A stretch of 14,031 bases of DNA from Promethearchaeota archaeon (lineage in GTDB: Archaea; Asgardarchaeota; Lokiarchaeia; Sigyniarchaeales; SOKP01). The stretch is from contig RDOA01000067.1 of the NCBI GenBank assembly GCA_011364925.1, positions 1 through 14,031 of the forward strand. Reading direction: 5' to 3'. Every line of letters begins with the position of its first letter. Position 1 is the stretch's first letter. The notes beneath the pieces are model-generated. The model did no database searches, was not told where the DNA came from, and worked only from the letters and a program-made list of their open reading frames with translations. The translations under genes and the position numbers were made by a program. Shown piece after piece: positions 676 through 11,563 of the stretch.

Positions 676-2025
676 TTATTTTCTGATAGAGTTTATATAT
701 TTTTCAATTGAGATTACAGGTTCAAATTTAGGAATTTCACCTTGTCTGTTTTTTACCCAGCGTAATTCTTCTTTAATATCAGCTTTCATCTTATCTCTAA
801 ATTGAAACTGTTTTAATCTAAAAAATCTCAACGTAAATTTATAGAATTTTATCGCTTGTTTTCCTAGTTCCAATTTGGTTAAAACTTTCGCTAAATTCCA
901 ATAATAAAAGAAATCATCTCTATATAGCTTAATCGCTTCTAAAAATCTGTTATGTGCTGCTTTGTATTTTCCAAGGTAAGCCTCCTTAATCCCTTTATAA
1001 AAATAATCTAGTGATTTCTGCCTAATAATTTCAAAAGAAAAAAAGCTAATCTCGCCATCCTTGATATCTTCAGACATTACTTTAAGCCTTTCTATTATTT
1101 CAGCTCGTTCTTCTGCAGACTGGTTAATTTTCGTAATAATACCTCTACCAAACGATTCAATTGAAGAAAAAGCAATTTTTTGGGTTCCTGGTTGGAGAGG
1201 TACTTTCTTTAAAGAATTCAATAATATGTTTGGAAATTTTAAATCAATCAATAATTCAACAGTATTACGAATGACTTTCATTTCCTTCTCAGAAAGAAAA
1301 GCTTGATTTTTGAGTCCATCTAAAAAAAATATCAGAAATTTAGGGGATTTTATTGCAATTTCATTTAATATCTCGAAAACAGAACTCTTATTATCGATTT
1401 GCTCTAGTTTTAACAATTCTGATGCAAATTTCGATATTAAATCATCTTGCTCTTTTGTGATAAACGAATCAGTAAAATCGATGTAATTATTCACGAGCAT
1501 CGACTTTCGAATTTTAGTTATCAATTGAAAGAAACTAAGGGGATAACTCTCGCTAAGTTTATTGCATTCAAATCTGATTGAAGGAATAGATTCGTTGTTA
1601 TAATAGAAATCTGTAGAGATGGCTTTAAATCCCGCGTTGGACAATAGTTCTTTTAATAGAAAAGGCGGAAAGCAAATTTTATGCTGCAATCCTTTATGAG
1701 GTACTCCAAAAAACCACCCTAAAATATCTTTTTTCTGTTCTTCGCTTGCTTTTAGATAATGTTGGCACGCTTTTTCAAGATCAGGAGTTTCAATAATGAG
1801 CTTCCCATTAGGTTTCAATACTCTAAAAAACTCGCTCAATGCGTAAATCGTTTCAAAAAAACTTAAGTGTTCAATTACGTGTATAGCTTTAATTTCCTCG
1901 CAACTAAAGTCGTCAAATTCGAGGTTTAAAGCGGACATCTGTCTATCAGCAACTAAATCTTCGTATAAGTCAATGTTACAATAATCTGGGTCGTATTTTT
2001 TGCCACAACCGATATTAAGTTTCAT
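676..2025 (-). CDS. Class I SAM-dependent methyltransferase domain fused to a helical region and C-terminal TPR-like repeats
   Basis: N-terminal KLNIGCG (motif I), NID, HVIEHL and RVLKPNGKLIIETPD are typical of Methyltransf_11-like domains. C-terminal YFYKG..YKAAHNRFLEAIKL..YYWNLAKVL..AIKFY fits a TPR pattern (about 820-1005). Start overlaps the stop of the upstream 78-aa gene (ATGA, 2022-2025). Confidence 0.85.
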   Translation of the reverse strand: MKLNIGCGKKYDPDYCNIDLYEDLVADRQMSALNLEFDDFSCEEIKAIHVIEHLSFFETIYALSEFFRVLKPNGKLIIETPDLEKACQHYLKASEEQKKDILGWFFGVPHKGLQHKICFPPFLLKELLSNAGFKAISTDFYYNNESIPSIRFECNKLSESYPLSFFQLITKIRKSMLVNNYIDFTDSFITKEQDDLISKFASELLKLEQIDNKSSVFEILNEIAIKSPKFLIFFLDGLKNQAFLSEKEMKVIRNTVELLIDLKFPNILLNSLKKVPLQPGTQKIAFSSIESFGRGIITKINQSAEERAEIIERLKVMSEDIKDGEISFFSFEIIRQKSLDYFYKGIKEAYLGKYKAAHNRFLEAIKLYRDDFFYYWNLAKVLTKLELGKQAIKFYKFTLRFFRLKQFQFRDKMKADIKEELRWVKNRQGEIPKFEPVISIEKYINSIRK

Positions 2026-2258
2026 CTTTTCTTATCAAAGTCTTTTAATTTTACAGTTGAATACCTTGATCCAGTTGGATATGTGTTGCTTATTGCCGAT
2101 TCAACGAGCAATATTATAAAATAACCAAATGTAAAGAAAATAATAACTAAGATAATAGTAAATATAACTTTGTTCCGAGTATTATCTAAAAATAAGACTC
2201 TTATTATATCTTTGTTAGTTAATCCTAATTCTCTTCCTAATTTAAACAATTGATACAT
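2022..2258 (-). CDS. 78-aa single-TM microprotein, paralog of 2307-2561; putative radical SAM/methyltransferase substrate
   Basis: Ungapped alignment to the 84-aa neighbour gives 35/78 identities by hand count. Central hydrophobic stretch, ATGA coupling to the methyltransferase. The substrate role is inferred from gene context. Confidence 0.8.
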   Translation of the reverse strand: MYQLFKLGRELGLTNKDIIRVLFLDNTRNKVIFTIILVIIFFTFGYFIILLVESAISNTYPTGSRYSTVKLKDFDKKR

Positions 2259-2306
2259 TTCTCTTGTTAATTTACCGTTGATGATTTTTAATTAAATATT
2301 ATAACT

Positions 2307-2561
2307 TTACTTTTTACCTTTATCTTTGAAGTCCTTCGTTTTTACAGTAGAGTACAATGCTCCGGCAGGATACGCATTTCTAGCGACTACAATTACTACA
2401 AAGACAATTATTATTCCAGTTAAGACGATAGCTATTATCAAAAGAATCGTATACAGCGTTGGGTTCTTAGTGTTGTTAAAAAGCAGTACATTCCTTATTT
2501 CTTTTCTATTTAATCCTAATTCTTTGCCGATTTTGACTAATTGAAAGAGATTTTCAAACAT
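2307..2561 (-). CDS. 84-aa single-TM microprotein, paralog of 2022-2258; putative radical SAM/methyltransferase substrate
   Basis: GGAGGT SD 9 nt before the ATG, start 34 nt downstream of the radical SAM stop, shared QLxKxGxELGL and NxYPxGxxYSTVKxKDF motifs with the neighbour. Confidence 0.85.
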   Translation of the reverse strand: MFENLFQLVKIGKELGLNRKEIRNVLLFNNTKNPTLYTILLIIAIVLTGIIIVFVVIVVARNAYPAGALYSTVKTKDFKDKGKK

Positions 2562-2570
2562 ATTTGGGAT

Positions 2571-2576
2571 ACCTCC
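2571..2576 (-). promoter_or_regulatory. Shine-Dalgarno GGAGGT for the 84-aa microprotein
   Basis: Minus strand reads AAATGGAGGTATCCCAAATATG, a 9-nt spacer to the ATG at 2561. Confidence 0.75.
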
Positions 2577-2595
2577 ATTTACATTTATTACAAGA

Positions 2596-3699
2596 TCATT
2601 TGAATCTTATTGTGTGTAGCATACTTTTCATTAATGAAACGGTTGAATCCAATTTTCCTTTGATTGGTAAGTGCTTGGATGAAATTAATTGATCTTCAAT
2701 TGCTCTTAAACAGTATGGCTCGTCAAATTCCTTTATCGCATAGGCTGTTCCCAAGCATCCTCCTTGACATAGATTTACTACATCACAATCAGCGCAATAT
2801 CCTTTTAGTTGTATTTTTTTTGTTCTCAACTTTCTCAAAATGGATTTTAAACTCTGAGTTCTAATGTTTCCTCCAATAAATTCGTCTGGGAGCGTTAGAC
2901 ATCCTTTGATATTTCCATTACTCTGAATACCTAAGACAGATTTTCCCGCTTGACATCCAACCCATGGACTTAATCCTAAATTTGGTAAAAACCTTGAGTA
3001 ATGCCCGAGGCAATGGGCGCCGATAACTGGTAATCTTTTAAAAGAATATTTTTTAGTATTGATAGCAATGAACAAAGCTACTGTGTAAAATTCTTCTCTA
3101 GAAATCGTTAATTCTCTTGGAAACCGTCCTATAGGGACTGTCGTTTGAATTTGCCAAGCAATATTTCGATCTAATAATAAATTTTTAATTTTATTTAGTT
3201 CATACAAATTTATTTTGCTAACTGAAGTAATTACACTGACTGAGAATCTTTCGGCTTTTAAACAGTTAATCGCATTTATTGTTTTTTCAAATGCACCTGG
3301 TATGCCTCTAAGATAATCGTGAACTTTTGCAGTACCCCCGTCTAAACTTAGTGAAACGCATTCAGGCTTTAATTTTTTTAACTTTTGCAGATTGTCAATT
3401 AGATTTAATCCATTGGTAACAATTGACAAATCAAGCCTGTTTTTTTTAATCTCTTTTGCAATTTCATACCAATCGTCTCTAACTAACGGCTCTCCCCCCA
3501 TTAAAGCAACTCCCTTATACCCACAATCACGGATATCTCTGACTAAATTCAATGATTCCTCCGTATTCAGCTCATCATGGCGAATCTTTCCTGCTTTTGA
3601 TCCGCAATGAATGCATTTACTATTGCATCTTAAAGTTATCTCCCAAACTGCACAGCTGGGTTTAATTATCTGAGAAATTAATGGAGTTATACTTGGCAA
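2596..3699 (-). CDS. Radical SAM protein with C-terminal SPASM domain
   Basis: CxxxCxxC (CNSKCIHC), GGEP, VSLSLDG..HDYLRG. SPASM cysteines Cx12Gx4C (CQAGKSVLGIQSNGNIKGC) and Cx2Cx5Cx3Cx14C (CADCDVVNLCQGGC...PYC). An in-frame TAA two codons upstream makes TTG 3699 the earliest possible start. Confidence 0.95.
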   Translation of the reverse strand: MPSITPLISQIIKPSCAVWEITLRCNSKCIHCGSKAGKIRHDELNTEESLNLVRDIRDCGYKGVALMGGEPLVRDDWYEIAKEIKKNRLDLSIVTNGLNLIDNLQKLKKLKPECVSLSLDGGTAKVHDYLRGIPGAFEKTINAINCLKAERFSVSVITSVSKINLYELNKIKNLLLDRNIAWQIQTTVPIGRFPRELTISREEFYTVALFIAINTKKYSFKRLPVIGAHCLGHYSRFLPNLGLSPWVGCQAGKSVLGIQSNGNIKGCLTLPDEFIGGNIRTQSLKSILRKLRTKKIQLKGYCADCDVVNLCQGGCLGTAYAIKEFDEPYCLRAIEDQLISSKHLPIKGKLDSTVSLMKSMLHTIRFK

Positions 3700-3724
3700 T
3701 TCTTAATATTAGATTCAAGTTTTT

Positions 3725-3730
3725 TTTAAA
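3725..3730 (-). promoter_or_regulatory. Putative archaeal TATA box (TTTAAA) for a leaderless or short-leader radical SAM operon transcript
   Basis: TTTAAA lies 26-31 nt upstream of TTG 3699 and there is no SD. The AT-rich background weakens this call. Confidence 0.4.
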
Positions 3731-3814: not shown

Positions 3815-4708
3815 TTAAGAAGAATCGCAATCTATAGGCCACTCAAGTAGCGAAATTATTAGATTCTTGTGAGACAATCCTCCTCGCGTTAGAGTCCCTA
3901 TAAAACTTTCCCTTTTGAACATTTTCTTTAAGATGTACCTTAAAAGTTGCGTATTTGATAACCTTCTTTCTTCAGCCTCGACTCTAAGTTTATGGATCTT
4001 AATATGCATGCTTTTAATCTCATCTATTCTATCTTTTAAAAAGGATCTTCCTTTAAATACTCCATTTCCGGAAGTGAAGAGAAGTAACTTATCCATTCCC
4101 TCTGTAAAGTCGTGCAATTTCTTAATCGATCGATATATCAAAGAAATATTTTCGGGAATGTCTGTATCCTTGCCGAATATCATTTGATATTTTGGCATTA
4201 CTGCGTCGGCGATAAATGCCCACTGGTGTTTCCGTTCGATTAGACTAATTTGTTCGGGAGCGTGTCCTGGCGTAGCAATTACATCAAAACAATATTTACC
4301 AGATTTGGTGTTAATTATATCTTCTAATGGTTCCGCTTGAAATGGTTGATAATTTATTCCCCAGACCATTTGACGATAGTCAGGGTAAATCTTTTCTTTT
4401 TTTAATAGAGGAATAGCCTGTTTGCTAGCAAAAACGGGGATATTAAACTCTTCTTGGAGCATACGACCTCCTCCGCAGTGATCTTCGTGATTATGGGTTA
4501 TAACGCATTTTTCAACCGCATTATTAGAATCAAGAGCCTTAATAAAATCTCGCAGGTCTCCTACTCCTCCTGGCGCACCCGCGTCAACTAACAATCCGTC
4601 AATTAAAAACACAGAGGTCCAGAACGGTTGAGGCATTAATTCGCTGTCTGAAGACCATTTCCATTCTAAAATTTCATTGTTGCAGTGATATACCTTTTGA
4701 ACAACCAT
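3815..4708 (-). CDS. Metallo-beta-lactamase fold hydrolase
   Basis: LLVDAG, HxHxDH (THNHEDH), TPGH and FIADA motifs. ATG 4708 (MVVQKV) preferred over the TTG at 4726 in the ORF track; start uncertain. Confidence 0.88.
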   Translation of the reverse strand: MVVQKVYHCNNEILEWKWSSDSELMPQPFWTSVFLIDGLLVDAGAPGGVGDLRDFIKALDSNNAVEKCVITHNHEDHCGGGRMLQEEFNIPVFASKQAIPLLKKEKIYPDYRQMVWGINYQPFQAEPLEDIINTKSGKYCFDVIATPGHAPEQISLIERKHQWAFIADAVMPKYQMIFGKDTDIPENISLIYRSIKKLHDFTEGMDKLLLFTSGNGVFKGRSFLKDRIDEIKSMHIKIHKLRVEAEERRLSNTQLLRYILKKMFKRESFIGTLTRGGLSHKNLIISLLEWPIDCDSS

Positions 4709-4859
4709 ATAATCAGCATAAAACAAAATTAAGAATCCAAATTAAATCTATTTCAAATTTATTTCCATACATAACAATAATTTAATTGCTTTTCTGATTA
4801 GAAAGTGTTATATGTTTACAAAATGAAATAGTGATATTGACCGAAATGAAGATAACACT

Positions 4860-7735: not shown

Positions 7736-8110
7736 CTATTCAAGTCCTATTTTTGCGGTGTATTTAACTAAAAGGAAGATAACAAACGCCACAATAATGA
7801 ACGTTATCAAATCTCCTATAAACGCACCAACTCTAAATGGTCCTACAACAAATGCCTCCCACTGGAATCCTGTAGGTGTAAAAAATTGAACAATAGGCAT
7901 AATTAAATTATCTACAAGCGATTTAACTAATGCACCGAGATATACGCCCATTATGAAAGCAACAGCAAGGCCTAGTACTTTATATTTCTTAATGAAATCT
8001 TTAAACTCCATCAATAAGTTTTTCTTTTTCTCTGGTTCCGGTGGAGGTGATGTGGGTGCTAATGCCTCTCTTATCTTTTTTAATTCTTCCAAAATTTCCA
8101 TATCTGACAT
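7736..8110 (-). CDS. mscL: Large-conductance mechanosensitive channel MscL family protein
   Basis: EFKDFI..YKVLGLAVAFIMG..LVKSLVDNLIMPIV (S1 and TM1) and GAFIGDLITFIIVAFVIFLLVK (TM2) match MscL signatures. Confidence 0.92.
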   Translation of the reverse strand: MSDMEILEELKKIREALAPTSPPPEPEKKKNLLMEFKDFIKKYKVLGLAVAFIMGVYLGALVKSLVDNLIMPIVQFFTPTGFQWEAFVVGPFRVGAFIGDLITFIIVAFVIFLLVKYTAKIGLE

Positions 8111-9264: not shown

Positions 9265-10119
9265 ATGAGTAAAGATGGATTTAACAAGTTTAAAGGAGAC
9301 GTGAACACAGATAGGATCAAATACATTGCCGATCCTCAACTGAGAAATATTGTTAATGTTTCTATTGCCTTAGCGCGACCTCTTTTGGTAAAGGGAGAGC
9401 CAGGCACGGGAAAAACTCTTCTTTCTCACGCGATTGCTGAAGCTTTGGGAAAAAGATTAATTGTATGGAATATAAAGAGCACCACAGAAGCGATAGATGG
9501 GTGTTACATGTACGATACAGTCCAAAGATTGAACGACAGCCGTTTTGGGTGCGAAGATCGCAATGTCGACAACATTAAAGATTACATTACTCTTGGACCT
9601 TTAGGCGAAGCGTTTGATTCTGAAGAACAAGTCGTGCTCCTCATCGACGAGATCGATAAAGCCGATATCGAATTCCCTAACGATCTTTTACAAGAATTAG
9701 ATGTTATGGAGTTTTATATTAAAGAAACCAAGGAATTTATTAAAGCGAAGACTCGACCAATCGTTATCATAACCTCCAACAATGAAAAGGAGCTTCCCGA
9801 TGCGTTTCTACGGAGGTGTATTTTCCATTGGATAGAATTTCCCTCAAAAGAGTTCATGGCAGACATATGCAATCTTCACTACCCTGATTTGAAGCAAAAT
9901 CTTTTAGAACAATGCTTAAAACACTTCTACGCGTTAAGAGCAGTAACCAAGTTAAGAAAAATGCCATCAACATCGGAACTTCTCGATTGGATTGGAGTTT
10001 TATTAAAGAGTGGAATTACTTTGGACGAACTAAAAAATGGAATACCATTTCTAGGCGTTCTTCTAAAGAAGGAAAAAGATTTAGAGGTTGCTCTCGAAAA
10101 AATCAAATTTCCTACGTAA
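9265..10119 (+). CDS. MoxR-family AAA+ ATPase
   Basis: Walker A GEPGTGKT, Walker B LLIDEIDKAD, FPNDLLQELD, and ITSNNEKELPDAFLRRC (sensor I and Arg finger). Confidence 0.95.
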   Translation: MSKDGFNKFKGDVNTDRIKYIADPQLRNIVNVSIALARPLLVKGEPGTGKTLLSHAIAEALGKRLIVWNIKSTTEAIDGCYMYDTVQRLNDSRFGCEDRNVDNIKDYITLGPLGEAFDSEEQVVLLIDEIDKADIEFPNDLLQELDVMEFYIKETKEFIKAKTRPIVIITSNNEKELPDAFLRRCIFHWIEFPSKEFMADICNLHYPDLKQNLLEQCLKHFYALRAVTKLRKMPSTSELLDWIGVLLKSGITLDELKNGIPFLGVLLKKEKDLEVALEKIKFPT

Positions 10120-10723: not shown

Positions 10724-11146
10724 TTAATGTGAGGTTTCAATTGTAGGGTCTATTCTTTTTATATCCATTACTTTATCAAAATCTGCATCGTGAGAATAAA
10801 TCTCTTTTACGTTATTTTCTAGCATGCTAGCAGCAATCAAGGAATCTCGACCTCCAATTTTATATTGATTTGCAATTTCAAAAGCGTACAGAATAGTTGA
10901 AGTGGAAATATTATAAATAATCACATTCTCCGAATCTAAAATGGCAATTAGACGGCGTTGGACCTCAGTAGGTAAAAATTTATATTTGTAAACTAAAGCA
11001 TGGTAACTTTCCATAAATACAATACTTGGAATTCCTACAATTTCTTTTGCAACTGCAATTCTTTCAAGTAGCTCCTTGCAAGGTTCATGCTCAGCTAAGT
11101 CACTGTTTAAAGCGTATACTATTACATTTGAGTCTATTCCCCTCAT
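10724..11146 (-). CDS. vapC: PIN-domain VapC-family toxin (ribonuclease)
   Basis: IDSNVIVY, VFMES, GRDSLIAA and IYSHDADFD carry the PIN acidic residues. ATG 11146 overlaps the upstream gene's TGA (ATGA), so it is preferred over 11155. Confidence 0.92.
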   Translation of the reverse strand: MRGIDSNVIVYALNSDLAEHEPCKELLERIAVAKEIVGIPSIVFMESYHALVYKYKFLPTEVQRRLIAILDSENVIIYNISTSTILYAFEIANQYKIGGRDSLIAASMLENNVKEIYSHDADFDKVMDIKRIDPTIETSH

Positions 11147-11373
11147 ATCTTCCACATACTTTTAGTCGCTTTAATTGCATCTATTTCTTTTTCTCCACCT
11201 GATAATGGTGCTTCTAAGATTTTTAATAATTGTTCTCTTTCTTGATTCTTTTTTCTAAACTCGTGACAAAGTATTAAATAATCACCGATTTTCATATTCA
11301 AATTAGCAGCTTCCCTTTTGATTTCCCACCATTTGGGTTTTTGTGCGTCATCAATTATAATATTTGTTCTCAT
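11143..11373 (-). CDS. Putative VapB-type antitoxin with ribbon-helix-helix-like N-terminus (76 aa)
   Basis: MRTNIIIDD beta-ribbon-like start, small size, directly upstream of and coupled to vapC. ATG 11373 has a TTTAAA box 25-30 nt upstream, so it is preferred over 11418. Confidence 0.75.
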   Translation of the reverse strand: MRTNIIIDDAQKPKWWEIKREAANLNMKIGDYLILCHEFRKKNQEREQLLKILEAPLSGGEKEIDAIKATKSMWKI

Positions 11374-11403
11374 ATATGTAAATATGTAATACATACATTT
11401 AAA
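11371..11403 (-). promoter_or_regulatory. Toxin-antitoxin promoter/operator
   Basis: TTTAAA (11398-11403), inverted repeat TATGTA-A-TACATA (11383-11395), extra TATGTA (11375-11380), and CATATATG palindrome over the start codon. Confidence 0.6.
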
Positions 11404-11563
11404 ATTTTGCAATTTCATCAGAACATCCTCTCTTTTCTTAAATTATATTGCTTTAACTTACTCGAAAATGTTATATCTAGGAGATTTTTAAAAGGAGTTA
11501 ATCTTAGATTTTACCTTTTTTTCAAAATGGATATATTTAAAATCCAAAACCAGGATTAAAAAA

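Follow-up and report, generated by a model that had tools for sequence, protein, structure and literature searches.

A four-gene cassette in the genome of a Promethearchaeota archaeon resembles a binary spliceotide system and, judged from sequence, is best read as a variant of one. It falls outside the filed members because its precursors lack the XYG motif and its enzyme scores below the family cut-offs. The cassette occupies positions 676–3699 of the window, by which we mean the whole 14,031-nucleotide stretch that was analyzed, and comprises genes for a radical SAM/SPASM enzyme, two microproteins, and a methyltransferase-TPR protein, all on the minus strand. Re-reading of the open reading frames reproduced exactly the layout given in the initial annotation: four same-strand genes with gaps of 34 and 48 nt followed by a 4-nt ATGA overlap. 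The two small genes, described there as paralogs lying between the genes for the radical SAM enzyme and the methyltransferase-TPR protein, are indeed related (45% identity, E = 3e-22) and so placed. In the host genome (3.9 Mb, 33% GC), each cassette gene is single-copy except for the two small paralogs; the nearest related loci bear the label Promethearchaeota/Lokiarchaeia. The general features of a RiPP are present, namely a gene-encoded precursor with a conserved leader and core beside a maturase. The microproteins are very probably the substrates of the cassette, and Y70 is probably the modified site.

Table 1 Features of the cassette and their positions in the window.
Feature	Position	Strand	Evidence	Assignment
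Radical SAM/SPASM enzyme, 367 aa	2596..3699	-	Pfam, NCBIfam, cysteines, tree	Archaeal splicease-like clade, probable maturase
Precursor 1, 84 aa	2307..2561	-	dN/dS, model	Leader 2-26, membrane helix ~34-60, core
Precursor 2, 78 aa	2022..2258	-	Orthologs at same position	Paralog of precursor 1, core intact
Methyltransferase (~1-156) and helical/TPR-like repeats, 449 aa	676..2025	-	Pfam, model, Foldseek	Probable tailoring enzyme
Shine-Dalgarno sequence GGAGGT of precursor 1	2571..2576	-	Sequence	
Putative promoter region	3711..3730	-	Sequence, comparison	TATA-like box 3730-3723 and GAATCY element 3716-3711

Several other genes in the window lie outside the cassette. A metallo-beta-lactamase-fold hydrolase is encoded 115 nt upstream on the same strand (3815–4726, minus); we rejected it as a cassette member because it is linked in only 4 of 37 loci, all close relatives. 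A MoxR-like AAA ATPase gene (9265–10119, plus) has similar counterparts near the cassette in seven related loci, which probably reflects local synteny. The product of 7736–8110 (minus) presumably resembles the MscL mechanosensitive channel, and a PIN-domain-like gene at 10724–11418 (minus) is overlapped by a small upstream gene, making a possible VapBC-type pair. Elsewhere in the host genome (G000:C27:163736-166144), two tandem radical SAM/SPASM paralogs fall outside the splicease-like clade.

The clear Shine-Dalgarno sequence reported for the first small gene is present as GGAGGT, 9 nt upstream of the start at 2561, and similar words precede 62 of 97 precursor genes. No clear example was seen before the precursor 2 gene, whose start lies about four codons later than in its orthologs. 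The gene for the radical SAM enzyme begins with TTG in the window and with ATG at the same place in orthologs. The TATA-like box noted before this gene does exist, at −31 to −24 relative to its start, and amounts to weak evidence, given 21 occurrences in both strands of the window and a lack of clean conservation. A GAATCC-like element is found 12–20 nt upstream of the radical SAM start in loci L001–L039, with the version GAATCT on the minus strand of the window; it is a possible promoter-proximal or regulator site. The word WATCC occurs within 25 nt of the radical SAM start in 27 of 37 loci; the corresponding figures are 2.8% for genes genome-wide and 5 of 81 for precursor genes. Scans for sigma-70 promoters and terminators, using models ill-suited to archaea, returned matches at the level of chance.

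The genes of the cassette travel together. Among 37 Asgard loci whose enzymes are 56–81% identical to that of the window, 35 carry one to four adjacent precursors and the other two stop at a contig edge. The methyltransferase-TPR gene is found in 31 of the 37; five loci are truncated, and the one true absence belongs to a genome with a second, complete copy of the cassette. Genes are ordered either enzyme-peptides-methyltransferase or peptide-methyltransferase-enzyme-peptide and the flanking genes differ, so the cassette moves as a block. Across 135 genomes of the family, which are related and not independent samples, precursors occur in 56, the enzyme in 56, the methyltransferase in 53, all three in 51, and none in 76. 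This patchy, all-or-none pattern within single genera is expected of a functional unit. The co-occurrence of the microproteins with both enzymes, on which the initial annotation had staked its proposal, is thereby borne out, and a search for radical SAM orthologs without precursor neighbors gave the same answer: besides the 35 Asgard loci, all 37 distant loci fetched from the archaeal clade carry precursors. Two enzymes outside that clade had none beside them. A separate Asgard radical SAM branch near the clade (L096:4275-5360, L097:2125-3171) was also observed, with no precursor found.

The absence of a recognizable RRE, protease, or exporter, remarked upon in the initial annotation, extends to the related loci. 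No conserved RRE was detected, and across the 37 loci no leader protease or exporter is a conserved neighbor; only two loci have an ABC pair convergent with the cassette. One orphan precursor (L122:3040-3282, on G259:C71), the only one found, has no enzyme genes beside it and is flanked by the genes that usually border the cassette in one sub-lineage; its genome has a complete cassette on another contig. Two precursor copies in L014 (7451–7697 and 9077–9253) are frameshifted or core-less, reflecting either decay or assembly error. Among sub-lineage neighbors on the downstream side are genes for a protein with a CBM96-like domain (eight loci; for example, L031:8746-9825) and for an unassigned membrane protein (six loci; L007:6218-6853).

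The microproteins are real genes under purifying selection, with dN/dS of 0.16 in the leader, 0.31 in the linker and helix, and 0.22 in the tail. Neither matches a Pfam or NCBIfam family. Kyte-Doolittle analysis confirmed the central transmembrane helix that had been described, with a single hydrophobic helix in each protein (3.6 at residues 41–59 of precursor 1; 2.9 at residues 34–52 of precursor 2). In the predicted model of precursor 1, a pair of leader helices is followed by a long hydrophobic helix and then by an extended tail. Positions G12, L15, Y64, G67, and Y70 are invariant, and S71, D77, and F78 are nearly so. In 76 of 78 Loki cores, those of both window precursors among them, Ser follows the conserved tyrosine, so that these cores do not display the XYG spliceotide motif. 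The initial annotation had inferred that the microproteins of this candidate RiPP-like system are substrates of both enzymes; as regards the radical SAM enzyme, genes that travel together and a leader followed by a core with a universal Tyr argue for that view. Two other readings of the precursors were rejected: the hydrophobic middle as the core, since it is the most variable part and is absent from soluble forms, and a pilin-like class III signal, since no such motif was seen in the precursors.

Sister enzymes (48–51% identity) adjoin three other forms of precursor. The first is a longer single-helix form, one of whose enzyme clusters is labeled Thorarchaeota. The second is soluble and lacks the helix, joining the same leader to up to six 15-residue core repeats; one is labeled Thermoplasmatota. 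The third has about three hydrophobic segments and ends in a short x-Y-G-V-[YF] tail. Because in these relatives an unchanged leader precedes either repeated soluble cores or three membrane segments, the helix must be a spacer or anchor, and the core is the tail. Of the conserved tyrosines, the second one alone, equivalent to Y70, is shared by all forms, and the multi-helix precursors keep just this one. Glycine follows it in most of these cores (soluble, 47 of 55; other single-helix, 22 of 34; multi-helix, 40 of 51), and Gly, Ser, Asn, and Asp can occur at this position within one locus. Copy number ranges from one to seven precursors per locus.

Individual loci illustrate this variety. In L092:150-4044 and L119:90-2582, seven and five genes for multi-helix precursors, respectively, form arrays upstream of the enzyme. 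L094 (G050:C1:1576294-1580160, minus) is a related cassette with a radical SAM enzyme (37% identity), a methyltransferase-TPR protein, and three tandem multi-helix precursors (1,576,294–1,577,714) having Asn, Asp, and Gly after the tyrosine. The metagenomic loci L064:3236-7371, L065:864-6235, and L066:732-8830 encode two radical SAM enzymes of the clade with soluble multi-core precursors, together with B12 radical SAM or methyltransferase-TPR genes. In a genome of the class Lokiarchaeia, the methyltransferase and radical SAM genes are separated by a pair of short, proline-rich soluble ORFs whose products end in Tyr-Gly-Val-Tyr (L087:5021-5476); no shared leader was seen in these ORFs.

The radical SAM/SPASM enzyme passes the Pfam cut-offs for both domains (Radical_SAM, 82 bits; SPASM, 30 bits), and its conserved cluster cysteines are intact. 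Its best NCBIfam matches are TIGR04103 (201 bits against a cut-off of 725) and TIGR03913 (170 against 592), scores far too low for membership in either curated family. The best plasmid matches include members of these two families, and their neighboring peptides carry Tyr-Gly or Tyr-Ala. TIGR04103 presumably corresponds to the InterPro entry IPR026482. PlpX, the first splicease, has been given as IPR026482 (PMC11002830). In a quick tree with SH-aLRT support values and without a characterized splicease sequence, the archaeal enzymes form their own clade (support 98) within a group of support 99 that contains TIGR04103 and TIGR03913; MftC and TIGR04053 fall outside. Identity to bacterial members of the two families is 30–33%, and the residues held in common with them include W77, Q183, Q185, G232, and W246. 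Sequence searches of the PDB returned only distant radical SAM and TPR matches. Modeling of the enzyme with precursor 1, as the initial annotation had suggested, gave a score of 0.41 compared with 0.02 for the best control, with at least 81% of contacts shared between runs and a partner pLDDT of at least 64. This support is weak: scores of 0.60 or less were seen for only 7 of 80 solved complexes and for both of the mismatched pairs that passed (2 of 110).

The methyltransferase-TPR protein passes the Pfam cut-off for Methyltransf_11, whereas its TPR match is weak (E = 2e-4) and under the cut-off. The predicted model (pLDDT 88.5) places a Rossmann-type domain before helical repeats, and the Foldseek matches are SAM methyltransferases. 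G6, G8, D19, D27, E52, and H53 are invariant, and a flexible loop (residues 102–116) is conserved. The Rossmann-type fold, glycine-rich motif I, and acidic ribose-binding residue are those of a class I SAM methyltransferase; look-alike clusters of the protein are archaeal. We favor the view that this enzyme acts on the peptide. In three soluble-type loci, genes for B12-dependent radical SAM enzymes occur and no methyltransferase-TPR gene is annotated within 5 kb, which hints that methylation may be a common second step. A role as a chaperone specific to membrane precursors was rejected, inasmuch as the protein accompanies soluble precursors in L066 and L087.

In the preferred model, the precursor would be set free in the cytoplasm before it enters the membrane, given a tail of only about 29 residues (the median among precursors). 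With so short a tail, the helix is likely still within the ribosome at termination, and insertion would be post-translational. Once the helix is inserted, the membrane would separate leader from core, and an enzyme needing both must therefore act first. The N-terminal helices would dock on the radical SAM enzyme in place of an RRE, as the RhaA leader does. Binary spliceotide systems lack an RRE, and a leader helix takes the place of the RRE-like Y protein (PMC11414181); the absence of an RRE here would be explained in the same way. The enzyme would then attack Y70 and excise a tyramine equivalent (−135.07 Da, loss of C8H9NO), leaving an α-keto-β-amino amide at x-Tyr-Ser rather than x-Tyr-Gly, and the methyltransferase-TPR protein would methylate the core or the newly formed group. 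The product would stay anchored in the membrane, its leader inside and its tail outside. This topology is probable on the basis of charge bias, the N side of the helix being the more basic one in 67 of 79 cases; the strongly basic extreme C-terminus counts against it. The resulting surface peptide, bearing a ketoamide where Y70 had been and possibly a methyl group, could inhibit proteases or cross-link.

The modified core might instead be freed by housekeeping signal or intramembrane proteases, in which case the helix would be the export signal of a secreted peptide. Such release, compatible with splicing, cross-linking, or other tyrosine chemistry, is suggested by the resemblance of the precursors to a signal anchor (basic N side, 23-residue hydrophobic stretch, short tail) and by the lack of the helix in soluble relatives. 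We regard it as rather unlikely: no protease or exporter is conserved, no cleavage motif is conserved at the end of the helix, and the three-helix forms are implausible as signal peptides.

We give splicease-like tyramine excision before membrane insertion roughly an even chance, since the literature consulted contains no documented case of splicing at Tyr-Ser. The Tyr-Gly found in most sister cores, which is the motif of spliceotides (PMC11414181), speaks for it; the serine of the Loki cores, the low identity of the enzyme to bacterial members, its scores far under the cut-offs, and the three soluble-type loci with B12 radical SAM genes speak against it. A diverged splicease scaffold could carry out other radical chemistry on the tyrosine, with methylation as the next step: side-chain cleavage that releases p-cresol, scission of the backbone at Tyr, or oxidation of the Ser next to it. 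The lineage-wide switch to Tyr-Ser, the separateness of the archaeal clade, and the tight coupling to a dedicated methyltransferase, unneeded in known spliceotide clusters, would fit such chemistry. We nevertheless think it unlikely. A search for enzyme residues that track the switch found little: among active-site columns almost none distinguishes Loki from Tyr-Gly-type archaeal enzymes, the exceptions in the core domain being S27 and Y61. The mixture of residues after Tyr within single loci suggests tolerance instead.

The invariance of Y64 and G67 also weighs against splicing, being compatible with a ring-forming reaction. SPASM enzymes often form aryl cross-links, and Y64, G67, and Y70 keep a fixed spacing in all 75 aligned Loki precursors and in the soluble repeats. 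A cross-link in the core (−2 Da), for example between Y64 and Y70 or between Y70 and a nearby residue, would produce a small macrocycle on a membrane anchor. This seems improbable given that multi-helix precursors retain only the second tyrosine and that the nearest named families are of the splicease type rather than formers of cyclophanes or sactipeptides. It is very unlikely that the small proteins are anchors or activators of both enzymes acting on another substrate (lipid, glycan, or cofactor): the leader helices could serve as a PlpY-like activator, and the methyltransferase, we presume, resembles COG4627-type enzymes, which often occur in glycan loci, but tandem core repeats, one to seven copies per locus, and a universal Tyr are hallmarks of substrates.

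Spliceases excise tyramine at XYG (PMC11414181). Like the type I systems PlpX/PlpY/PlpA and PcpXYA and the binary systems RhaX/RhaA, RcsX, and RasX, the cassette combines a radical SAM/SPASM enzyme, probably belonging to the same wider clade, with short precursors encoded next to it that have a helical leader and a conserved core Tyr; in common with the binary systems, it lacks an RRE (PMC11414181). It differs in its Tyr-Ser, a membrane helix between leader and core, an unrelated leader, a dedicated methyltransferase-TPR protein, and an enzyme about 33% identical to a TIGR04103 member. The TIGR03913 GDL-motif maturase with DUF1843 peptides likewise acts on multiple small paralogous substrates that are encoded in tandem and share an invariant Tyr, and one Aureibacter locus combines Tyr-Ala peptides with a downstream methyltransferase gene. 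However, the cassette shows no GDL motif or DUF1843 match, the enzyme identity is 30–31%, and its precursors are membrane-anchored. Mycofactocin biosynthesis shares a SPASM enzyme (MftC) that acts on a precursor tyrosine, as predicted for the cassette, and a methyltransferase in the cluster. By contrast, MftC lies outside the clade of the cassette enzyme (26% identity), and in the cassette no RRE is present and the Tyr is internal rather than C-terminal.

The initial annotation knew of no described system with this layout. The literature searched indeed contains no such description, but the splicease-like character of the cassette means that it is not unprecedented. A splicease survey by Scott et al. 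(Chem, 2022) reportedly covers archaea; leaving it aside, no Asgard peptide-modification pathway of this kind appears in the literature searched. We tentatively propose that the dedicated radical SAM enzyme and methyltransferase install a non-canonical backbone group at Tyr-Ser and that the anchored microproteins stay on the surface, which would represent either the first splicing outside Tyr-Gly or a new two-step tyrosine reaction. If splicing occurs at Tyr-Ser, it would widen the substrate rule for an enzyme class used in protein labeling; if the product stays anchored, it would be an unusual form of RiPP. The cassette is found in about two fifths of one Loki family, with relatives across Asgard lineages, and the proposal, if true, would mean that the prokaryotes most closely related to eukaryotes possess a class of modified membrane peptides displayed at the cell surface.
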